Positions 1-23,406 of a stretch of DNA of 64,000 nucleotides are shown here, piece after piece. The notes beneath the pieces are model-generated. The model was not told the DNA's origin. It was given only the letters and a program-made list of their open reading frames with translations, and searched no databases. Numbering within the stretch: the first letter of the stretch is position 1; every line of letters begins with the position of its first letter. Source of the stretch: Deltaproteobacteria bacterium (GTDB lineage Bacteria; Desulfobacterota_D; UBA1144; Nemesobacterales; JAJCZQ01); the NCBI GenBank assembly GCA_029262335.1, contig JAJCZQ010000048.1:3844-67843 (forward strand), given 5' to 3'. A program made the translations under genes and the position numbers.

Positions 1-310
1 AATACAGGATTACGTTGAAGATAACGGTTTTAGTGTTGTTAAATCATTTGTTGGTCACGGAATCGGTAAAAATCTTCATGAAGAACCACAGGTGCCAAAT
101 TTTGTTTCAGAAATGTCCCAGCTGGGTACAAGCCTCAAAAGCGGGATGGTACTGGCAATAGAACCAATGGTAAACCTGGGTGTTGCAGAAGTAAAAATTT
201 TAAATGATGGCTGGACTGCTGTAACAGCAGATGGTAAACTTTCAGCTCATTTTGAACATACGGTGGCTATTACGGATAATGGCCCCGAAGTTTTAACAAG
301 GTTAAATTAA
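1..310 (+). CDS. map: Methionine aminopeptidase, C-terminal part (5' end lies outside the window)
   Basis: Open frame from the window edge. Translation ...[19 protein letters not shown]...[15 protein letters not shown] is the typical MAP type I C-terminus. It sits immediately upstream of infA as in conserved operons. Confidence 0.8.
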
Positions 311-327
311 TAATTTTTGGGGTGTAA

Positions 328-549
328 ATGCCAAAGGAAGAAAGACTAGAATTTGAAGGAACAATATTAGAAGCACTGCCTAATGCTATGTTCAGGGTAG
401 AAATTGATAATGGTCATGTAATATTGGCATATGTATCCGGTAAAATGAGGACAAGATTTATTAGAATACTTCCTGGAGATAAGGTTCAACTAGAACTTTC
501 TCCTTATGATTTAACAAAAGGAAGAATAACGTACAGACTAAAAAAATAG
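328..549 (+). CDS. infA: Translation initiation factor IF-1
   Basis: 72 aa. [41 protein letters not shown] is a near-canonical IF-1 sequence. ATG start. Confidence 0.95.
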
Positions 550-565
550 TAGGCTGGAGAATGTT

Positions 566-679
566 GTGAAGGTTAGAGCATCTGTTAAAAAGATTTGTGA
601 TAAATGTAAGATTATTAAGAGAAAAGGTGTAATCAGAGTGATTTGTGTTATTAAAAAACACAAACAAAGGCAAGGGTAG
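566..679 (+). CDS. rpmJ: 50S ribosomal protein L36
   Basis: GTG start. 37 aa (M)[36 protein letters not shown]. This is the classic L36 zinc-ribbon sequence, located between infA and rpsM. Confidence 0.85.
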
Positions 680-699
680 TATAAGGAGGATTTTAATTT

Positions 700-1080
700 A
701 TGCCTAGGATTGCTGGAGTTGACATACCGCTAAATAAAAGAATTGAAGTAGGCCTCACCTATATTTATGGTGTTGGGCGTAAAACTTCGATTGATATTCT
801 AAATTCAGCTGCAATTGATGTTAGTAAGAGGTCAAAAGACCTTGATGATAATGAAGTTGCAAAATTAAGAGAAGTTATAGAAAACCAATACACTGTAGAA
901 GGTGATTTAAGAAAAGAGATACAGGGTAATATTAGAAGACTTGTTGAAATTGGGTGTTACAGAGGAGTTAGACACAGAATGGGATTACCTGTCAGGGGTC
1001 AATGTTCAAAATCCAATGCAAGAACAAGGAAAGGCCCAAGAGGCACTGCAATAGCAAAGAAAAAGAAAGTAGGTAAGTAG
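700..1080 (+). CDS. rpsM: 30S ribosomal protein S13
   Basis: [26 protein letters not shown]... is canonical S13. GGAGG RBS upstream. Confidence 0.95.
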
Positions 1081-1092
1081 AGCGGAGTTATA

Positions 1093-1479
1093 ATGGCTAA
1101 GAAAAAAGTAAGTCGTAAAAAAGTTAAGAAATTTGTTGAAGAAGGTGTCGTAAATATAAGGGCAACCTTCAATAATACAATAGTTTCTGTTAGTGATACT
1201 AATGGTAATGTATTATCGTGGTCAAGTGGTGGTGTTAAAGGGTTTAAAGGTACAAGGAAAGGAACCCCTTTTGCTGCACAGATAGCGGCCGAAGATGCTG
1301 CAAAGAAAGCAGCTACAATGGGCATGAAAACTGTAAAGGTTTTTGTTAAAGGGCCAGGGCCGGGAAGAGAACCAGCTATTCGTTCGCTTCAGGCTTCAGG
1401 ACTAAAAATATCATTTATAAGAGATATTACACCTATACCCCATAATGGTTGCAGGCCACCAGGAAGAAGGAGAGTTTAG
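1093..1479 (+). CDS. rpsK: 30S ribosomal protein S11
   Basis: ...[30 protein letters not shown]... is canonical S11. Confidence 0.95.
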
Positions 1480-1542
1480 TTAATAATGATTACTAAAATG
1501 TTTATTTACGATTGCATCAAGTATCAGGAGGATGTTTTATAA

Positions 1543-2175
1543 ATGGGAAGATATACAGGACCTACAGACAGGCTGTCTAAGAGAGAAGGTACTAACCTTT
1601 TTCTTAAAGGTGAGCGCAGCTATAATGGTAAATCATCGATTGATGCAAAAGCAAATCAACCACCCGGTGTTCACGGACAGAGAAGATCTAAATTCTCTGA
1701 ATATGGACTTAGACTCAGGGAAAAACAAAAAGTAAAAAGAAGTTATGGTTTAAGAGAAAATCAGTTTAAAAGATATTTTGAAAAAGCATCTAGAATGAAA
1801 GGCGTTACGGGCTCACTTCTTATTGTTTTACTTGAAAGAAGACTTGATAACGTAGTTTACAGACTTGGTTTTGGAAGTTCTCGCAGTGATTCAAGACAAC
1901 TTGTTGGACATAAACATATACTTGTCAACGGAAGTGTATTAAATATACCTTCTTACCAGGTTGAAGCAGGAGATGTAATTGAAATCAGAGAAAAAAGCAA
2001 AAAACTAGGCAGAATTAATCAGGCCCTTCAGCTACTTGAAAGAAAACCAGTGCCGGATTGGTTGCAACATGATATTGATAACTATAAAGGTGTAGTCAGC
2101 AGGTTACCCGAAAGAGAGGATGTAACATTTCCTATCGAAGAGCAATTAATCGTTGAGTTTTATTCAAGAGTATAA
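1543..2175 (+). CDS. rpsD: 30S ribosomal protein S4
   Basis: MGRYTGPTDRLSKREGTNLFLKGERS...; an S4 domain is present. AGGAGG RBS. Confidence 0.95.
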   Translation: MGRYTGPTDRLSKREGTNLFLKGERSYNGKSSIDAKANQPPGVHGQRRSKFSEYGLRLREKQKVKRSYGLRENQFKRYFEKASRMKGVTGSLLIVLLERRLDNVVYRLGFGSSRSDSRQLVGHKHILVNGSVLNIPSYQVEAGDVIEIREKSKKLGRINQALQLLERKPVPDWLQHDIDNYKGVVSRLPEREDVTFPIEEQLIVEFYSRV

Positions 2176-2197
2176 TTTATTTTAGGGGATTAATAAT

Positions 2198-3283
2198 ATG
2201 GAACAGCAGATTGAAGAAAATATAGAAGAAGTAATTACAAAAGAATTTCAGAAGAACTGGAAAGACCTTATACATCCAAGAAGGCTTGAAAAAGATGAAA
2301 GAGTCTCGAATGATTTGTATGGAAAATTCGTTTGTGAACCACTGGAAAGAGGTTATGGGGTTACTTTAGGTAATGCTCTTAGAAGAGTATTACTTTCTTC
2401 AATTCAGGGGCCGGCAATAACATCTGTAAAAATTGATGGTGTACTTCACGAATTTTCAACAATTCCCGGTGTTAAAGAAGATGTAACGGAAATTATATTA
2501 AATCTAAAAAGTTTAAATCTTGAAATGCATACATTTCAGCCCCAGACATTAACTCTTAAATTTGATGGACCGGGCTCAGTTACAGCTGCAAATATTGAAG
2601 AAAATCATCAGGTTACTGTCATCAATACAGATCAGCATATAGCTACAGTTGCAGAAGGCGGAAAAGTTGAAATGGAAATGACTGTAGAAATGGGAAGCGG
2701 ATATGAATCTGTTGAAAGACGTGGTGATCAACAAAAAAGTATAGGCACAATACCTATTGATGCTTTGTTTTCACCTATCAGAAAAGTTAATTATACAATA
2801 ACAAATTCAAGGGTAGGAAGAAGAACTGATTATGAGAAGCTTACACTTGAAATCTGGACAAACGGTACAATATTGACAGAAGATGCACTGGCTTACAGTG
2901 CTAAAATTATTAAACAACAACTAAGTATTTTTATAAATTTTGATGAATCATTATTTGAAGAAGAAGAAATTATTGAAGAAAATCAGGATATAAAAGGTAA
3001 TGAAGATGTACTTTTCACACATGTAGAAGATATAGATCTGTCTGCAAGGTCATTGAATTGCCTTAGAAGAGCAAATATTGTTTATTTTGGTGAACTTATA
3101 CAGAATACTGAAGAAGAACTGTTAAACCTGGAAAATTTTGGTAAAAGGTCGTTAGTTGAAATAAGGGAAAAGCTTGTTGAAATGCAGTTTGAGCTTGGAA
3201 CTGACATCAATTCAGAAGTATTCGAAAAAGAAAAAGAAAGAAGATCTACTGCTAAGATTAGTGAAGAAGAGGAATCAGAGTAG
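2198..3283 (+). CDS. rpoA: DNA-directed RNA polymerase subunit alpha
   Basis: 361 aa. N-terminal dimerisation domain (FVCEPLERGYGVTLGNALRRVLLSS) and C-terminal alpha-CTD (SARSLNCLRRANIVYFGELIQNTEEELL). Confidence 0.95.
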   Translation: MEQQIEENIEEVITKEFQKNWKDLIHPRRLEKDERVSNDLYGKFVCEPLERGYGVTLGNALRRVLLSSIQGPAITSVKIDGVLHEFSTIPGVKEDVTEIILNLKSLNLEMHTFQPQTLTLKFDGPGSVTAANIEENHQVTVINTDQHIATVAEGGKVEMEMTVEMGSGYESVERRGDQQKSIGTIPIDALFSPIRKVNYTITNSRVGRRTDYEKLTLEIWTNGTILTEDALAYSAKIIKQQLSIFINFDESLFEEEEIIEENQDIKGNEDVLFTHVEDIDLSARSLNCLRRANIVYFGELIQNTEEELLNLENFGKRSLVEIREKLVEMQFELGTDINSEVFEKEKERRSTAKISEEEESE

Positions 3284-3304
3284 TAAAGTTTTAGGAGATA
3301 TCAG

Positions 3305-4126
3305 ATGAGACATAAGAGGGTAGGAAGAAAATTAGGTGTAGTTTCTAAACACAGAAGAGCAATGTTCAGAAACATGGCAACAGACCTGTTCAGACATGAA
3401 AGCATAACTACTACTGATGCACGTGCAAAAGAGATTAGAAGAGTTGCCGAAAAGATGATTACACTGGCCAAAAAAGGAACTTTACAGGCAAGACGTCAGG
3501 CAGCAGCATTTATTAAAGATAAAGATGTATTAAAAAAACTTTTCAGTGAAATAGCTGAAAAATGTAAAGACAGACCTGGTGGATATACCAGAATTATAAA
3601 AATGGGTTACAGAAGAGGCGATAATGCAGCCCTTTCCATGATTGAAATAGTTCAGGAAGAATATAAAGCTAAAAAGAAAAAGAAGAAACCAGCAAAAAAG
3701 AGTACCGAAACTAAATCAACAGAGAGCAGCAGTAAAAAAAGTACAAAAAAAGAGTCTGCTGAAGAGCTTGGTCTTATTGAAGATGCAGCTAAAGGTGCAG
3801 TTGCAACTGAAGCTGTTGCAGAAGGTGTAGATGAAGTAACTCCTGAAACAGAAGCAGAAGCAAAAACAGATTCTCCCGAAGCTAAAGAAGAAATTAAAGC
3901 AGATGAAATTCAGGATAAAACTGAAGCCAAAACAGAAACTGATACACAAGAAACAGAAGAGATAAAAGCTGAGGCTGAAACAAAACCAGAAGAAGAGCCT
4001 GAAGCTAAATCTGAATCTAAAGAAGAAAGTGTAACCGAGCAACCCGAAGCTAAAACTGAAGAAAGTTCTAACAGCGATGAAGTTGCACCTGCTGATGAAA
4101 AAAAAGAAGATAAAAGTAAAGAATAA
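3305..4126 (+). CDS. rplQ: 50S ribosomal protein L17 with a ~150-aa low-complexity K/E/T/A-rich C-terminal extension
   Basis: The N-terminal ~125 aa are canonical L17 ([37 protein letters not shown]...[17 protein letters not shown]). The remainder is acidic/lysine-rich low complexity. Confidence 0.9.
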
Positions 4127-4179
4127 TTTTAAAATTTCTTTAATTTACTTCTCAAATCTAATCAAAATTACTAAGATCA

Positions 4180-5190
4180 ATGCATAATACCGGACTTATA
4201 CTGGATGCAGAATATTTAGTTGATCTTAAAAAACTTTCCATTGATGCTGAAAATGCCGGTTTCCATTCAATATGGTCCACAGAACTTTACCGAACAGCGT
4301 TTCAGCAAATCTCAGCTACCATTCATGATACTAGTAAAATTAATCTTGGTACTGCCGTATCACTGGCATTTACACGTTCCCCGCTTATTACTGCACTCAA
4401 TTCCCTAGATATAGACGAATTATCCAATGGAAGGTTTATACTGGGTCTTGGTACGGGTGCAAAATATACTAATGAAAAATATCATGGAGTAAGCTACGGT
4501 AAACCTGTAAAAAGAATTAAGGAATGTATTCAAATAATAAGACATTTTATTTCTTCTGCACATAAAGATACAGATTATGAATTTAATGGTGAATACTACA
4601 AGATTAAAACAAAAGGTTATAAAAGGGCTTTTGTACCTGTAAAAAATAGTATTGAAATTTATCTTGCAGGTATTGGTGAAAAGATGATCCAGACATCAGC
4701 AGAAATTGCTGATGGATATATTGGACATGTTGTTTGCAGTAAAGAATATCTTAAGGATGTAGTTATCCCTTCGCTTAATAAAGGATTTAGTATTTCGAAC
4801 AGATATGATGATTTTGTTGTATCATCTATAATTACCTGTGCTGTTTCAGATGATATAGAAAAAGCTGTTAACGATGCAAAAGCAACTATAGGTTTTTATG
4901 CAACTGTCAAAACATATAAAGACCCTTTTCTGTTACACGGGTTTGAAGAAAATCTCTCTAAAATAAGATCAGCATATTTTGATAATGATATAAGAGCCAT
5001 GATCGCTTCAGTCCCCGACAGAATGGTAGATATTTTTGCAATAGTTGGCAGCAGTCAGCACTGTGCTGAACAGATAGACATATACAGAGAAATAATTGAT
5101 TTGCCGATTCTTAGTGTGCCACATTATTTTATCAATTATCAGGATGTGTCACTATATCAAAAAAAATTAATCGAACTATTTAATAGATAA
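4180..5190 (+). CDS. Luciferase-like monooxygenase (LLM-class flavin/F420-dependent oxidoreductase)
   Basis: 336 aa. TIM-barrel LLM signature regions (SIWSTELY, ...LGLGTGA...). Family-level call only. Confidence 0.65.
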   Translation: MHNTGLILDAEYLVDLKKLSIDAENAGFHSIWSTELYRTAFQQISATIHDTSKINLGTAVSLAFTRSPLITALNSLDIDELSNGRFILGLGTGAKYTNEKYHGVSYGKPVKRIKECIQIIRHFISSAHKDTDYEFNGEYYKIKTKGYKRAFVPVKNSIEIYLAGIGEKMIQTSAEIADGYIGHVVCSKEYLKDVVIPSLNKGFSISNRYDDFVVSSIITCAVSDDIEKAVNDAKATIGFYATVKTYKDPFLLHGFEENLSKIRSAYFDNDIRAMIASVPDRMVDIFAIVGSSQHCAEQIDIYREIIDLPILSVPHYFINYQDVSLYQKKLIELFNR

Positions 5191-6733: not shown

Positions 6734-8062
6734 ATGCCGGATGATAATAAACATCATGTTGTAATTGTAGGTGGAGGTTTTGGAGGGCTGTATGCAGCAA
6801 AAGAACTGGGCAAAAGAAAAGAAATCAAAGTTACACTTATTGATAAACGTAATTTTCACCTCTTTCAGCCACTCCTTTACCAGGTAGCAACAGGCGGACT
6901 ATCCCCCGGAGATATTGCATCTCCGTTACGTGCTATACTAAAAAAAAATAAAAATACAAATGTCCTAAGAGGTAAAGTAGTTGATATTGATCCCGATAAT
7001 AAACAGGTAATTATGTTTAACGGGGAAAGGATACATTTTGACAGCCTTATTATAGCAACCGGAGTTATTTATAACTATTATGGCAATGAAAAATGGCTTG
7101 GTGAATCACCTCCGCTTAAGACCATGGAAGATTCACTTGGAATAAGACACAGGATATTTCATGCCTTCGAAGAAGCAGAACGCGAAAAAAATATAGAAAA
7201 AAAGAACGAATGGAAACGATTTATTATAATCGGCGGCGGACCTACAGGTGTGGAACTTGCAGGAGCACTAGCCGAGCTTGCACATTTTACACTAAAAAAT
7301 AATTTCAGAAATTTTGACCCAACTAAAACAGAGATAATACTTGTCGAGGCAACTGACAGGATACTGCCATCTTACCCTGAGAAACTTTCCAAAAGTGCAG
7401 AAAATTCCTTAATTGGACTTGGAGTTACCATAAGGAAGAACTGTTTTGTTAATGAGATTAATAAAGATAATGTGATTATAGAAAACAAAGGGCAAACAGA
7501 ATCCATTAGTGCACAAACAGTTCTATGGGCTGCAGGGGTAAAGGCCACTAAGATAGGCAAAGTTTTAAAAGACAGGTTTAATGTTGAAAATGATAAAGTA
7601 GGGAGAGTATATGTAAACGAGGACATGACCATAAATAAAAGAAATGATGTTTATGTTTTGGGCGACCTCGCAATTTATACACACTTTGACGGTAAACCCC
7701 TCCCGGGTGTGGCTCCGGTGGCAATGCAGCAGGGTAAATATATCGCAAGAAAAATTTATAATGATATTCTTAATAAAAATACCGGACCATTTATATACAA
7801 GGAAAAAGGCAGTTTAGCTGTAATAGGGAGAAATAAAGCAGTTGCCCACCTTGGACCTTTACAGTTTAGTGGTTTTTTTGCATGGCTTATATGGATATTT
7901 ATTCATATAAGATATCTGATCGAATACGATAATAAGATAATGGTTATGCTACAGTGGGGATGGTATTACTTTACTATGAAACGCGGTGCAAGGTTAATTA
8001 CGGGTGACGACCCGTTCCCTTATGTTGATAAGGACTACTATAACCAGACTAAAGATAATTAG
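6734..8062 (+). CDS. ndh: Type II NADH dehydrogenase (NDH-2)
   Basis: 442 aa. Two dinucleotide-binding motifs (VVIVGGGFGGLYAAKEL; FIIIGGGPTGVELAGAL) and the characteristic C-terminal membrane-anchor region. Confidence 0.85.
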   Translation: MPDDNKHHVVIVGGGFGGLYAAKELGKRKEIKVTLIDKRNFHLFQPLLYQVATGGLSPGDIASPLRAILKKNKNTNVLRGKVVDIDPDNKQVIMFNGERIHFDSLIIATGVIYNYYGNEKWLGESPPLKTMEDSLGIRHRIFHAFEEAEREKNIEKKNEWKRFIIIGGGPTGVELAGALAELAHFTLKNNFRNFDPTKTEIILVEATDRILPSYPEKLSKSAENSLIGLGVTIRKNCFVNEINKDNVIIENKGQTESISAQTVLWAAGVKATKIGKVLKDRFNVENDKVGRVYVNEDMTINKRNDVYVLGDLAIYTHFDGKPLPGVAPVAMQQGKYIARKIYNDILNKNTGPFIYKEKGSLAVIGRNKAVAHLGPLQFSGFFAWLIWIFIHIRYLIEYDNKIMVMLQWGWYYFTMKRGARLITGDDPFPYVDKDYYNQTKDN

Positions 8063-10146
8063 CCCGTTTCAGCATTGTCCAGCTTGCTATTTGATTCCGC
8101 AATTATTTTTTCTGATATATGTGGCGGTACTTCTTCATAATGGGAAAATTCCATTGTAAAACTTCCCTCGCCGCTTGTTAATGATCTTAATTCAGGTGCG
8201 TAGGTTAAGATTTCTGACATTGGTACAAGTGCATTAATACTGTGGCCTGCAGGTGAAGAATCAACACCTGCTACTCTTCCTCTTCTTGAATTAATATCTC
8301 CTATAACATCTCCCATACTGTTATCGGGTATAAAGATGTTCATATTCATAAGAGGTTCCAGTAAATATGGCTTTGCCGATTCCATTGCACTTCTGAATCC
8401 CAATGATGCTGCAATCTGGAATGCAATATCTGATGAATCTACAGGATGATGTTTACCGTCAAATACTGTAGTTTTAACATTTATTACGGGAAAACCTGCA
8501 AGAGTCCCCTTTTTTAAAGCATCCTGTACTCCTTTTTCTACAGATGGAATAAAGTTCTTTGGTATTACCCCACCTACAATCTTATTTTCAAACTGGTAAG
8601 TCTCTCCGTCTTTAATAGGTTGAATTCTTAGCTTGGCAACACCATACTGACCCCTTCCGCCAGTCTGTTTTACATATTTACCTTCTGCTTCAGATGATAA
8701 TTTGATACTTTCTTTGTAGGGGACTTTAGGTGTATGTAGGTCTACATTTACTCCATAGTTGTTTTTTAATTTATCCACAATTACTTCAATGTGCGTCTGC
8801 CCTGATCCTGATAGTAAAAATTCATTGGTCTCTTCATCCCTGTGAAAATCAATTGTTGGATCTTCTTCTATTACCTTGGCAAGAGATATATTCAGTTTGT
8901 CTTCATCTGATCTGCTATGCGGATCAATTGCAAAAGACAATACGGGTTGTGGTATTTCTAAAGGCTTAATAATTAATGGCTGATTAATATCAGAAAGAGT
9001 ATCAGTGGTATTTACATCTTTTAATTTACTTAGTGCTATTATGTCCCCGGTCTGAGCTTCTTTTATAGGGAATTCCTGCTTGCCGATAAGCCTGTTTATA
9101 TTATTTATTTTGATTTTAGATTTATTTCCTGATGACAGCAATACCTGGTCAGGTTTTACAGTCCCTGATATGACTCTTGCTATACTTAATTTTCCGGCAA
9201 AAGGATCACAAATTGTTTTAAAAACATAAACAGATACCGGTGTATCATTTGATTGTTTGATTGTAATTGGATTGTTCTCATGATCAATGGCTTTAATGTC
9301 TGAAGTATCAAGCGGTGAGGGCATTAGTTCGGTTATCTCCATAAGAAGTGAATATAAACCAAGCATTTTTTGGGATGAACCAATTAGTACAGGGTAGATT
9401 GTGGAATCTTTTACACCCTTTTTGTACATTTCTATAATTTTATCGTGATCAATATCTTCCCCGTTCAGGTATTTGACAAGGATTTCGTCATCCTGTTCTG
9501 CTATGGTTTCGAGTACCTTGTCCTTGTAGTTATTGGCAGTTTCAATCATCTCTTCCGGTATTGGTATTTCATCAAAGTTATTTCCGCCTTTATAAATAAA
9601 GGCTTTCATTTCAAAAAGGTTAATAACTCCGGTAAAATCAGGGCCCTGTCCAAGTGGTATTGTGATGGGGACAGTCTTTATTTTAAGATGATCTTCAATT
9701 CTTGCCAAAGCAGATTCAAAATTGGCTCTTTCTTTATCAATATTGTTCATAAAGATAATTCTTGGAATGTTAGCACTTGAAGCCATACTCCAGTACCTGT
9801 CAATCTGGTCTTTTGAGTCCTCTATACCATCAACAACTATAATGACACCATCCGAAACCTGAATTGCCAATTCAGCATCAAATAAGAAATTGGAGTAACC
9901 GGGTGTATCTATAAGATTTATTAGGTGACCGTTATGTTTCAGGAAAGAAACATGTGAATTAGTGGACATTTTCCTTTGTTTTTCTTCTTCCTGGTAATCT
10001 AGATTTGAAGAACCTTTGTTTACATCACCCATACTTTTGGTAGTACCCGAAATGTAAAGGAGTGCATCAGCCAAAGTTGTTTTACCGACACCATGAGGAC
10101 CTACTACTGAAATGTTCCTTACTTTACTTCTTGGAAATTCAGACAT
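8059..10146 (-). CDS. Divergent elongation factor G-like translational GTPase (EF-G paralogue)
   Basis: 695 aa. P-loop VVGPHGVGKTT, G3 DTPGYSNF (Tyr where EF-G has the catalytic His), G4 NNID. Five-domain EF-G length with a conserved C-terminal domain IV/V-like region (GGRGQYG...). Confidence 0.8.
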   Translation of the reverse strand: MSEFPRSKVRNISVVGPHGVGKTTLADALLYISGTTKSMGDVNKGSSNLDYQEEEKQRKMSTNSHVSFLKHNGHLINLIDTPGYSNFLFDAELAIQVSDGVIIVVDGIEDSKDQIDRYWSMASSANIPRIIFMNNIDKERANFESALARIEDHLKIKTVPITIPLGQGPDFTGVINLFEMKAFIYKGGNNFDEIPIPEEMIETANNYKDKVLETIAEQDDEILVKYLNGEDIDHDKIIEMYKKGVKDSTIYPVLIGSSQKMLGLYSLLMEITELMPSPLDTSDIKAIDHENNPITIKQSNDTPVSVYVFKTICDPFAGKLSIARVISGTVKPDQVLLSSGNKSKIKINNINRLIGKQEFPIKEAQTGDIIALSKLKDVNTTDTLSDINQPLIIKPLEIPQPVLSFAIDPHSRSDEDKLNISLAKVIEEDPTIDFHRDEETNEFLLSGSGQTHIEVIVDKLKNNYGVNVDLHTPKVPYKESIKLSSEAEGKYVKQTGGRGQYGVAKLRIQPIKDGETYQFENKIVGGVIPKNFIPSVEKGVQDALKKGTLAGFPVINVKTTVFDGKHHPVDSSDIAFQIAASLGFRSAMESAKPYLLEPLMNMNIFIPDNSMGDVIGDINSRRGRVAGVDSSPAGHSINALVPMSEILTYAPELRSLTSGEGSFTMEFSHYEEVPPHISEKIIAESNSKLDNAETG

Positions 10147-10299
10147 ATGCCACCTCGCTCACTATGTTCTATTTTCATTATAAAGTTAATTGGGGTTTGA
10201 AGTAAAGGAATATTTTTAAATTATATGTTATTATTATAAAAATTCTTTAAAGATTCTAATGACCAATTAAAAATAATTTCTTAATGTACAACTTTAAAT

Positions 10300-13040: not shown

Positions 13041-14297
13041 TCAAATCATGGTTTTTTGCAGCTCTTCTCTTAATTTATTTACTTCGTAGTATGGTTCACC
13101 TGCTTTTTTTGCATCTTCATAAAGTAACTCTAGTTCAATTAATACAGATTCAAGTTTCTTTCTGCTATCCGGATTTAAAAGGGCTTTTCTAGGAGTGAGT
13201 CCATCAAGTTGTTTAAGCGGTGTGTCAATCCACTTGCTGTAATATTGATCCAGTTCACTGTTAAACTGTTTACGGCTCCTGACCCCCTTTGGCAGTTTAA
13301 CGGATTTGGATTCATTCTTAACTGACAATTCGTTGAAATTTTTAGAACTGTCTTTCTTATGTTTTAGGAAACCCTTAAGTAATGTTTCAAGGTAGAATTT
13401 TGCACTGGCAAGAGTATTTAATGAGTTGCAGTTTACAATCATTTTATTGCCTTCTATTTCAATATGAATATCTGCCTCATTACCATCAAGGTTATTTAAT
13501 CTGAATATTATCAGATCATCGGATGTGTTGTTCAGTAGTGAAAAGTTTTTATTTTTACTGATAATTTCTATTATTTTTGATCTTTTAGTTAAGCTGTATT
13601 CAGATTTAGCTATTACAAAATCCTCTCCCTCCGGAGTCAGATAACGCGGGTGTTTAATAACATCATCAATATGGTTGCCAATAAGGTATCCAAAATCTTT
13701 TAAAAAGTTTAACTGGCTTTCTTGTTCACCATTTTCTATTTTGTACGCATTAAAATTAATCTTGAAATATTCCACAATTAAAGGTTTAAATACCAGGGGA
13801 TAAATTGAAACAAGGCTGAAGAAAAAGTTTTTGTCCTGAGTTCTTACAGGCCTGGCACATATAATATCTGTCAGGTTCAGATTGCTAGACACAATAGCAT
13901 CATGAACAACTGTTTCCTCACCTGAAAATATGTCAGACAAGATACAGAACTCACCTGGTTTTATGTCTTTAATTTCAAAATAACTGCGTGAACTATTTTT
14001 CCATTCTTTTAAGACATGTAATTCTTCAATGCTGATATTATCAACCGAATCTTTAACATACAGATCAATTACTCTTGAGTTATTATCAAAAGTTTTGAAA
14101 TCAAAAATAAACCAGTCTAAAAATCTGGCAAACAGTTTGTCATCAATATCGTCTTCTTCATTGTATACAATAATAGAATCGGGATTATCCTGCCAGATAT
14201 AAAAGGCTTCTGCCGTTTGTGAATGAATATGAGGCTGATCTACATATTCTGTGAGTTTGAGTCTGAGACTGCTTTCTATTTGATCGCTATTATCCAT
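13041..14297 (-). CDS. Hypothetical protein with a C-terminal DUF2384-like (Xre/MbcA/ParS toxin-binding-like) motif
   Basis: 418 aa. The N-terminal ~340 aa have no recognisable family. The C-terminal WIDTPLKQLDGLTPRKALLNPDSRKKLESVLIELE fits the W-x-tP-x3-L-x-G-x-TP-x3-L...V...L..iE pattern of DUF2384. Confidence 0.5.
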   Translation of the reverse strand: MDNSDQIESSLRLKLTEYVDQPHIHSQTAEAFYIWQDNPDSIIVYNEEDDIDDKLFARFLDWFIFDFKTFDNNSRVIDLYVKDSVDNISIEELHVLKEWKNSSRSYFEIKDIKPGEFCILSDIFSGEETVVHDAIVSSNLNLTDIICARPVRTQDKNFFFSLVSIYPLVFKPLIVEYFKINFNAYKIENGEQESQLNFLKDFGYLIGNHIDDVIKHPRYLTPEGEDFVIAKSEYSLTKRSKIIEIISKNKNFSLLNNTSDDLIIFRLNNLDGNEADIHIEIEGNKMIVNCNSLNTLASAKFYLETLLKGFLKHKKDSSKNFNELSVKNESKSVKLPKGVRSRKQFNSELDQYYSKWIDTPLKQLDGLTPRKALLNPDSRKKLESVLIELELLYEDAKKAGEPYYEVNKLREELQKTMI

Positions 14298-14311: not shown

Positions 14312-14782
14312 TTATTTATTACCTTTTGTATTAAATATCTTGTTAAGGGCTTCATTTCTGTAGTTGAATATAGTATCAAGATTATTGCGAATATATATAC
14401 TGTTTAACAAATTACCAAGTAATCCATAAGGTACGGCATAATTTATTAAATCTTTTGCAATTATTCCCTTGTCAATTTCACTGAAAAAATGCTGATGATG
14501 CCAGAGCCTGTATGGTCCTATTCTTTGTTCGTCTATAAAATAATAGGGTTTATTAATATGTGTAATTTCAGTTACCCAGGTTGTTGTGAAACCGCGAAAA
14601 GGAGTTACCTCGTAAGTAATTATCATTCCTTCGTAAAGTTCTTTTTCAATTTCAGATTTTATTTCTAATCCAAGACTGGGAGGAGTTATTAATTTCAGAT
14701 TGTTGGGATCAGAAAAAAAATCCCAGGATTCTTCAATTGTAATTGGTAAAAACTGCTCTCTATTAAGTGTAAATATAGACAT
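14312..14782 (-). CDS. SRPBCC (START/polyketide-cyclase/CoQ10-like) family protein
   Basis: 156 aa. Size and hydrophobic-pocket pattern fit the SRPBCC fold. Family-level guess only. Confidence 0.5.
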   Translation of the reverse strand: MSIFTLNREQFLPITIEESWDFFSDPNNLKLITPPSLGLEIKSEIEKELYEGMIITYEVTPFRGFTTTWVTEITHINKPYYFIDEQRIGPYRLWHHQHFFSEIDKGIIAKDLINYAVPYGLLGNLLNSIYIRNNLDTIFNYRNEALNKIFNTKGNK

Positions 14783-22587: not shown

Positions 22588-23040
22588 ATGAAAGTAGTTG
22601 CAAAGCATCCTACTGTCCGAAGGGACTATTTAATAGAGGAAGTTTTTGAAGCAGGTATTGTCCTCAAAGGCTCTGAAGTTAAATCCCTAAGGGCAAGTAA
22701 TGTGAGTATAAAAGAGAGTTTCGCGATGTTAAGAGACGGTGAGGTCTTTTTGATGAACAGTTATATTGCGCCGTATCTACAGGCAAATGTACACAATCAC
22801 GATACCACAAGGGAAAGGAAACTACTTTTAAATAGAAGAGAAATAAATAAATTAATAGGTAAGACCCATCAGAAGGGATACACGTTGATTCCTACAAGGC
22901 TGTACTTTAAAAACGGAATGGCTAAGCTTGAACTGGGCCTGGCAAAAGGTAAAAAAACGCAGGACAAAAGAGACGATATAAAACGTAAAGAAGCAAAAAG
23001 AGAAATGGACAAGGCAATAAAACGAAATTCAAGGTATTAA
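22588..23040 (+). CDS. smpB: SsrA-binding protein
   Basis: 150 aa. ...AGIVLKGSEVKSLR...LLLNRREINKL... with a basic C-terminal tail. Located directly upstream of the tmRNA. Confidence 0.9.
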   Translation: MKVVAKHPTVRRDYLIEEVFEAGIVLKGSEVKSLRASNVSIKESFAMLRDGEVFLMNSYIAPYLQANVHNHDTTRERKLLLNRREINKLIGKTHQKGYTLIPTRLYFKNGMAKLELGLAKGKKTQDKRDDIKRKEAKREMDKAIKRNSRY

Positions 23041-23053
23041 AAACTAAACAAAA

Positions 23054-23406
23054 GGGGGCGTACTGGCTTCGACGGGAAATGAGATAGCTTATGCTGCATG
23101 TCGAGCTTATTAACTCGTAAAACTGATTAACGCACAATAAGTGCCGAACCAATTAACGCACTCGCAGCCTAAATAGAGCTGTGACGACTGATGAGACTCT
23201 GTCTGTAGGTTTTATTAAGTCGCAATAAATACGGACTGGCCATGAAGTTTTTCCAGGTTGGCGGATTGGCGAGATTTTAGACCAGGATAGCAGTGCATGA
23301 CCCGCCTGTAGGTATTTGCACTGTGAAACTTAAAAGCAGGATAAACATGTAGAGGCTGAGTAAGGCTCTTTCGCGGACCTGGGTTCGATTCCCAGCGCCT
23401 CCACCA
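23054..23406 (+). ncRNA. ssrA: Transfer-messenger RNA (tmRNA, SsrA)
   Basis: The 5' GGGGGCGUACUGGCUUCGACGGG... and 3' ...GGACCUGGGUUCGAUUCCCAGCGCCUCCACCA ends form the tRNA-like acceptor/T-arm with CCA. The internal tag reading frame ends ...GCC GAA CCA AUU AAC GCA CUC GCA GCC UAA (AEPINALAA-stop) at 23143-23172. It lies immediately after smpB. Confidence 0.9.

Follow-up and report, generated by a model that had tools for sequence, protein, structure and literature searches.

What can an elongation factor G (EF-G) paralogue contribute to translation when the catalytic histidine of its GTPase (G) domain has given way to tyrosine? The question is raised by a gene on the minus strand, at positions 8059-10146, of a 64,000-nucleotide stretch of DNA from a Deltaproteobacteria bacterium (assembly GCA_029262335.1, contig JAJCZQ010000048.1, positions 3,844 to 67,843), which is here called the window. 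Based on phylogeny, motif signatures and domain architecture, we place the encoded protein of 695 residues in the EFG II (EF-G2) subfamily, in a sub-clade of Dadabacteria/Thermodesulfobacteriota that is without a characterised member. We further propose, from comparisons to already studied EF-G2 proteins, that it is probably a fusA2-type alternative EF-G with little or no GTP hydrolysis, the likeliest role of which would be a slow translocation that spares GTP under energy shortage.

Family placement and the position of Tyr84

The gene is an open reading frame (ORF) running from ATG to stop, and the five Pfam domains of its product, GTP_EFTU (residues 8-277), EF-G_D2, EFG_III, EFG_IV and EFG_C, follow each other in EF-G order, in agreement with the EF-G length and domain order that a sequence-only reading of this DNA had assigned to it. 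The best NCBIfam model is NF009381 (PRK12740.1-5, labelled simply 'elongation factor G'), with 829.7 bits at a cutoff of 583, while the EF-G model TIGR00484 lies just above its cutoff (673.8 versus 659.4). The models for the EF-G2 equivalog (NF009377, 589.7 versus 890) and for Bacteroidota EFG2 (NF058620, 480.8 versus 1000) both remain below theirs. Other translational GTPases were considered and rejected, namely tetracycline ribosomal-protection proteins (NF012153 tet_protect, 305 versus 775, with the TetM/W, Otr(A) and TetQ models far below their cutoffs), RF3 (prfC, 166 versus 473), BipA (TypA, 157 versus 757) and LepA (109 versus 534).

The G domain, including the G' insert, is encoded at 9316-10125 (like all features of the gene given below, on the minus strand). 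Residues 3-106 and 107-208 align without gaps to Thermus thermophilus EF-G through G1-G4 (phmmer against the PDB), so that VVGPHGVGKTT pairs with IAAHIDAGKTT, RKMST with RGITI, DTPGY with DTPGH and NNID with NKMD. In the P-loop (G1, residues 16-24, 10075-10101) GPHGVGKTT thus stands for the canonical AHIDAGKTT and fits the EFG II pattern GhxxxGKT. Switch I (G2, residues 58-62, 9961-9975) reads RKMST rather than RGITI, with Ser replacing the Mg-coordinating Thr, and switch II (G3, residues 80-87, 9886-9909) reads DTPGYSNF, with Tyr84, encoded at 9895-9897, in the place of the catalytic His. G4 (residues 134-137, 9736-9747) is NNID instead of NKxD, with N134 and D137 kept and the Lys lost, and G5 (9373-9381) is GSS, where canonical EF-G has GSA. 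Because the alignment is gapless, Tyr84 can be equated with the catalytic position, and an offset His is absent. The sequence-only reading had quoted GPHGVGKTT, DTPGYSNF and NNID and had put Tyr at the catalytic-His position; all three motifs are present in the ORF, and its assignment of the Tyr holds. At the other end of the molecule the resemblance to canonical EF-G is much closer, as tip loop I of domain IV, KQTGGRGQYG (8641-8670), is near-identical to RQTGGRGQYG of T. thermophilus EF-G, and tip loop II, HHPVDSS (8431-8451), corresponds to its YHEVDSS.

An exhaustive HMMER search returned 4,292 relatives at E<=1e-30 among 1.84 billion cluster representatives, and a separate homologue set was formed by the best 120 matches from 5.8 billion proteins, spanning 97-43% identity. 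The query, this set, cluster representatives and eight references together gave 273 aligned sequences. A neighbour-joining tree with 100 bootstraps was calculated from Kimura-corrected distances, for 186 sequences and 679 columns, with outgroups that include three canonical EF-Gs of unrelated phyla. All 100 of the 100 replicates separate 11 canonical EF-Gs from 175 other sequences, and the latter include the query and the characterised EF-G2s 1WDT, 9K0Z and 7UVP. The canonical side includes T. thermophilus EF-G, two actinobacterial EF-Gs, one spirochaete EF-G and the lineage's own fusA product. The query's own clade has 19 members and 100% bootstrap support.

EFG II has been defined by a G1 of the form GhxxxGKT, a G2 in which RGITI is relaxed to xxxSx, with RxxT/SI in a delta-proteobacterial subgroup, and a conserved NKxD in G4, and its members are never the only EF-G of a genome (Margus, Remm & Tenson 2011, PMC3150367). 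The query shares with this description the five domains, the G1 starting with Gly, the Ser-for-Thr exchange in G2, the retained DxPG, the status of a second EF-G and the fast evolution, and RKMST matches both the xxxSx and the RxxT/SI patterns (Margus 2011). It differs in G4, where the Lys varies freely (N/K/D/E) within its clade. The conserved NKxD is lacking not only in the query but also in the three characterised EF-G2s and in many representatives; as even the characterised proteins depart from it, NKxD cannot be called a defining feature of EFG II. We base the subfamily assignment on the tree split in combination with the G1 and G2 signatures and the five-domain architecture.

Across the 273 aligned sequences the catalytic position is occupied by Tyr in 139, Phe in 68, Asp in 18, Ser in 9, Ala in 5, Asn in 4 and Leu in 4, next to other residues. 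His is found in 15, of which 11 are fully canonical (AHIDAGKTT/RGITI/DTPGH) and four are divergent. Judged from this alignment, loss of the His along with relaxed G2 and G4 motifs is the rule throughout the EF-G2 subfamily. The sequence-only reading had treated the protein as unusual, a view that we correct here, since it belongs to a long-known group in which His loss is expected.

The four divergent proteins lie on the EFG II side and carry His in G3 (P0306, DTSGH; P0309, DTPGH; P0310, DTPGH; P0376, DCPGH), being otherwise EF-G2-like. They were rejected as His-retaining orthologues, as their identity to the query is no more than 34-37% and they are nested among His-less sequences; they suggest that the His has been lost or regained repeatedly within EFG II. 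We note that P0309 has the exact P-loop of the query, GPHGVGKTT, together with a G4, NRVE, that is without the guanine-specifying Asp. A further relative, P0319 (1040 residues), bears its EF-G-like region at residues 348-1034, behind an N-terminal extension of about 347 residues.

The full five-domain EF-G fold is predicted to be kept. An AlphaFold2 model calculated from a 72-member family alignment reached a mean predicted local distance difference test score (pLDDT) of 87.9 and a predicted template modelling score (pTM) of 0.77. In Foldseek comparisons its TM (template modelling) scores were 0.93 to ribosome-bound Escherichia coli EF-G (7n2v), 0.85 to Mycobacterium smegmatis EF-G2 (9k0z), 0.80 to ribosome-bound Bacteroides thetaiotaomicron EF-G2 (8dmf) and 0.76 to 1wdt.

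Conservation of the gene and its coexistence with fusA

The identical protein, with the same neighbours, is encoded on an independent Joint Genome Institute (JGI) metagenome contig (L004), and positions 1-5149 of the window are 99.96% identical to another contig of the same JGI sample (L009). This agreement between independent contigs rules out a sequencing artefact peculiar to the window. Among the 120 closest homologues, none has His at the catalytic position, which is mostly Tyr or Phe and sometimes Asp, Asn or Ser, while GxxxxGKT[TS] and DTPG are kept in all of them. Within the query's clade, position 84 is Tyr in each of the 18 orthologue clusters at 77-97% identity and Phe in the members at 53-72% identity, with one exception that has Ser. 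Conservation of the Tyr among orthologues, which separates a lineage trait from a strain mutation or an error, is thereby confirmed. The second residue of G4 is Asn, Lys, Asp or Glu in the same clade, and the ORF is intact throughout, at 694-706 residues.

Codon comparison with the orthologues at L005 and L007 gives a ratio of nonsynonymous to synonymous substitution rates (dN/dS) of about 0.06 overall, falling to 0.04-0.05 for the G core and to 0.02-0.04 for domains III and IV; these ratios are approximate, dS being about 1.4 and hence near saturation. All of its domains are under strong purifying selection, and the gene is functional. That it should be a sequencing error, a strain mutation or a decaying fusA pseudogene has next to no probability in view of the identical independent copy, the 18 Tyr clusters, the intact ORF, the low dN/dS and the separate canonical fusA described below.

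In the 72 aligned family members, the nucleotide-pocket residues G21, K22, T23, D80, T81, P82, G83, D137 and G256 are invariant, and N134 and S257 are conserved in at least 90%. The tip of domain IV is likewise invariant, at Q494, G496, G497, G499 and Q500 of the first loop region and at H567, V569, D570, S571 and S572 of the second. Varying or absent in the family are the catalytic His (Tyr or Phe), the Lys of G4 and the Asp of the AHID P-loop, which is GPHG in the query. An Asp of the D137 type in G4 selects guanine, and the domain IV loops of EF-G reach the decoding centre.

The host is apparently a marine, Dadabacteria-like bacterium with a streamlined genome. Relatives of the RplB encoded on L009, at 74-80% identity, are named Candidatus Dadabacteria or Ca. 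Mycalebacterium. In the NCBI taxonomy Dadabacteria is a class of Thermodesulfobacteriota, in agreement with the names carried by homologues of the EF-G2 protein at 70% identity. Marine pelagic Dadabacteria are reported to have genomes of about 1.22 Mb with more than 96% coding density, low G+C content and limited or no gene duplication; the G+C content of the window, 32-39%, fits such low-GC marine members.

The sequence-only reading had taken the gene for an EF-G paralogue distinct from the housekeeping fusA and had located the latter outside the window. Both points stand. A tblastn search of the window found no second translational GTPase, so fusA is absent from it, and a canonical fusA is found in the str operon of a relative. 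The window begins inside a map-infA-rpsM-rpsK-rpsD-rpoA-rplQ cluster, which the L009 contig continues back to rplW. In the 1.2 Mb genome of the relative (L092), rpsL-rpsG-fusA-tuf-rpsJ lies upstream of rplB, and its fusA (L092:4810-6894, 694 residues) has AHIDAGKTT, RGITI, DTPGH, NKMD and GSA and shares 62% identity with T. thermophilus EF-G, against 37% with the query. An 83%-identical EF-G2 orthologue lies on L005, which overlaps L092 with 100% identity over 4,299 bp; fusA and the EF-G2 gene are therefore in one genome, about 20 kb apart. Several assemblies of the lineage break at or just before tuf/rpsJ (L094:30-350, L093:2-127), possibly owing to a second tuf copy or a repeat.

The EF-G2 gene itself is located between the NDH-2 and GH113 genes and not after rpsG. 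Housekeeping fusA was accordingly rejected as its identity, as all four motifs differ, the gene lies outside the str operon, and its product falls on the opposite side of the fully supported split. The NDH-2, PNP oxidase and epimerase neighbours are conserved in close relatives and partly in a 65%-identical relative, and this conserved neighbourhood indicates vertical inheritance of the EF-G2 gene within the lineage. In a relative with a 1.99 Mb genome (L006), NDH-2 is missing beside EF-G2, and an IS605 OrfB/TnpB gene (Cas12f1-like_TNB, L006:1-849) is found about 9 kb from the orthologue.

Proposed mechanism and alternative readings

Deposited sequences of three studied EF-G2s were recovered from PDB alignments; in all three the catalytic His is absent and NKxD is not kept. 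The query is 31-35% identical to them (31% to B. thetaiotaomicron, 34% to M. smegmatis and 35% to T. thermophilus) and 37% identical to canonical EF-G. The M. smegmatis protein (9K0Z, 9K10; G1 GPSGGGKTT, G2 QQRSV, G3 DTPGYADF, G4 TKLD) has the His-to-Tyr exchange, the GPxGxGKTT P-loop, the switch I Ser and the preserved domain IV loops in common with the query, and differs in G4, in G5 (VCS against GSS) and in domain II insertions of its own. It is reported to be a stress-specific factor and is described as neither translocating nor recycling, and its Y98, the equivalent of Tyr84, points away from the gamma-phosphate. The exchange H88Y in mycobacterial EF-G1 nearly abolishes GTPase activity.

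The B. thetaiotaomicron protein (BT2167; 7UVP, 8DMF; G1 GSSGSGKTT, G2 YGYSV, G3 DCPGSDDF, G4 NQLD) has lost both the His and the G4 Lys, as has the query, and coexists with an essential fusA. It differs by Ser for the Tyr of the query, by YGYSV in switch I and by about 30 additional residues inserted in domain IV. It is reported to be without GTPase activity and to enable GTP-independent translation under carbon limitation, and it is a genuine slow translocase. Weak or absent stimulation of GTPase activity by the ribosome is the functional hallmark of the M. smegmatis and B. thetaiotaomicron proteins. The protein is strongly induced on carbon limitation and needed for gut colonisation. T. thermophilus EF-G-2 (1WDT, 2DY1; G1 GHAGSGKTT, G2 HRTTV, G3 DAPGYGDF, G4 TKLD) resembles the query in the Tyr, the P-loop and the domain IV loops and departs from it in G4 and in switch I, where the Thr is retained; GTPase and translocation activity have been reported for it despite the same Tyr. 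Canonical EF-G (fusA, EFG I), finally, shares length, domain order, domain IV tip loops, DTPG and fold with the query, which lacks AHIDAGKTT, RGITI, DTPGH and NKxD, lies outside the str operon and has a promoter-like site of its own. We note that in G5 (GSS) and in DTPG the query is more canonical than the studied EF-G2s.

Based on these comparisons, we propose that EF-G2 operates as follows. The residues for guanine nucleotide and Mg2+ are all kept (GKT of the P-loop, DTPG, Asn and Asp of G4, Gly-Ser of G5 and the Ser of switch I), and the protein would bind GTP-Mg and, like EF-G, dock at the factor site of the ribosome. There, the sarcin-ricin loop (SRL) would be unable to position a general base, leaving GTP hydrolysis very slow or absent. 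The Asp of the P-loop, which the query does not have, plays a role in SRL-dependent activation. Tyr and Phe interchange within the clade, and the side chain at position 84 is therefore unlikely to take part in the chemistry; poor hydrolysis by the query is plausible. In Ras-family GTPases, substitution of the G4 Lys (e.g. K117N) speeds nucleotide exchange. The Lys-to-Asn change probably loosens nucleotide binding here as well, speculative as this step is, and a weaker nucleotide affinity via NNID could help the factor to leave the ribosome without hydrolysis. A slow, GTP-sparing alternative translocase of the Bacteroides type is the reading we favour, with chances that we see as evenly balanced, because constraint is strongest in domains III and IV and because a streamlined oligotroph would gain from cheaper elongation.

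A clearly less probable reading, which nevertheless has to be taken seriously, is that of a stress-specific ribosome-binding regulator modelled on M. smegmatis EF-G2. Such a factor would bind the non-rotated 70S ribosome or the 50S subunit without hydrolysis, translocation or recycling, and would modulate or protect the ribosomes of nutrient-limited cells rather than drive elongation. The His-to-Tyr exchange and the similar P-loop of the two proteins agree with it, translocation has been deemed unlikely as the main function of EF-GII (Atkinson 2015), and the sequence-only reading had itself suggested a regulatory, hibernation or rescue-type factor. However, the identity of 34% comes without a supported sister relationship, and the strongest constraint rests on domains III and IV, with invariant decoding-centre loops, as a translocase needs, even if M. 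smegmatis EF-G2 keeps these loops too. In addition, a purely regulatory copy would need to be of great value to persist in a paralogue-poor genome of 1.2 Mb. We consider it improbable that the protein is an active, GTP-hydrolysing alternative translocase tuned to other conditions, as T. thermophilus EF-G-2 would suggest. The strong purifying selection on the G core, the complete set of nucleotide-binding residues and the reported activity of that Tyr-bearing protein are in its favour, but close clade members carry Phe, which is incapable of activating water, the G4 Lys is freely swapped for Asn, Asp or Glu, the Asp of the AHID P-loop is absent, and the effect of H88Y in mycobacterial EF-G1 argues in the same direction. 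Still far less probable is a dedicated recycling EF-G, such as spdEFG2, mitochondrial EF-G2 or Pseudomonas aeruginosa EF-G1B, or a tetracycline ribosomal-protection protein, in spite of the general EF-G architecture and the weak NCBIfam tet_protect matches. Mitochondrial EF-G2 keeps motifs G1-G5 as well as its catalytic His (His145), the sole sampled spirochaete paralogue (L003) has DTPGH and sits on the canonical side of the tree, and M. smegmatis EF-G2, the nearest studied analogue, cannot recycle; for protection proteins and RF3, the scores given above fall well short of the cutoffs.

Several points weigh against our proposal of a GTP-sparing translocase. The low identity to the characterised EF-G2s, with the query slightly closer to canonical EF-G, makes the transfer of function weak. 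As M. smegmatis EF-G2 also keeps the domain IV loops, yet is described as inactive in both translocation and recycling, sequence cannot separate the translocase from the regulator. A dead GTPase is not certain either, given the activity reported for T. thermophilus EF-G-2. Bootstraps are near 0 for the relationships within the EFG II side of the tree, which is a neighbour-joining tree only and samples a single spirochaete EF-G paralogue. Finally, coexistence with fusA was seen in the genome of the 83%-identical relative, while the contigs closest to the window end at rplW or rpsJ.

The His-to-Tyr exchange in EF-G2 is already known, having been documented structurally for M. smegmatis and being present in T. 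thermophilus EF-G-2. New is a well-supported EF-G2 sub-clade in Dadabacteria/Thermodesulfobacteriota in which position 84 alternates between Tyr and Phe and the Lys of G4 can be dispensed with. In a streamlined marine genome of about 1.2 Mb, of a kind for which almost no duplicates are reported, fusA and fusA2 are both retained under strong purifying selection, which points to a value of EF-G2 where nutrients are chronically scarce, beyond gut or pathogen stress. The natural variants (Tyr or Phe at 84; Asn, Lys, Asp or Glu in G4) are useful for probing how EF-G2 uses nucleotide without the canonical hydrolysis machinery, and marine Dadabacteria are a reasonable system for the idea of energy-sparing translation. 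A bolder version, to which we give only a slim chance, is that oligotrophic marine Dadabacteria use the protein routinely, and not as an occasional stress factor, for a substantial share of their elongation, as a translocase that binds nucleotide loosely and works without hydrolysis. If so, each codon would cost about one GTP less, in adaptation to the chronically limited energy of the open ocean, and it would be clear why EF-G2 is retained in a genome of 1.2 Mb that has hardly any paralogues.

Flanking signals and other genes in the window

The EF-G2 gene is flanked by one divergent and one convergent gene, and hence looks monocistronic and independently regulated. A putative promoter of its own, TTTACT-18-TATAAT at 10206-10177, and a Shine-Dalgarno sequence, GAGGTG at 10156-10151, were located by a consensus scan upstream of the ATG at 10146 (10151-10206 in total, minus strand); promoter-like matches in the region are no commoner than in shuffled sequence, and the assignment of the promoter is based on its position only. 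In the vicinity of the gene, neither the Rfam nor the tRNA scan revealed an RNA element. At its other end, the convergent NDH-2 gene (6734-8062, plus strand) shares 4 bp with it at the stops. In this overlap (8059-8062), TTAG provides both stop codons, TAG and, on the opposite strand, TAA, which fits a very high coding density.

Elsewhere in the window, smpB (150 residues, Pfam SmpB 1e-55) is directly followed by the transfer-messenger RNA (tmRNA) gene (23054-23406, Rfam 165 bits), the two together occupying 22588-23406 on the plus strand. The tag peptide encoded by the tmRNA is AEPINALAA, and smpB with tmRNA forms the standard trans-translation pair. Ribosomal protein L17 (3305-4126, plus strand) is 273 residues long, of which only residues 20-116 constitute the L17 domain. 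Its C-terminal tail of about 155 residues is of low complexity and rich in Lys, Glu, Thr and Ala, unusual for a streamlined genome, and a long L17 of 263-271 residues is found in relatives too (L005, L007, L008). Two conserved ORFs on the minus strand, at 13041-14297 (418 residues) and 14312-14782 (156 residues), gave no Pfam match at 1e-4, and the orthologue of the former carries DUF7986 in L005 and L007.

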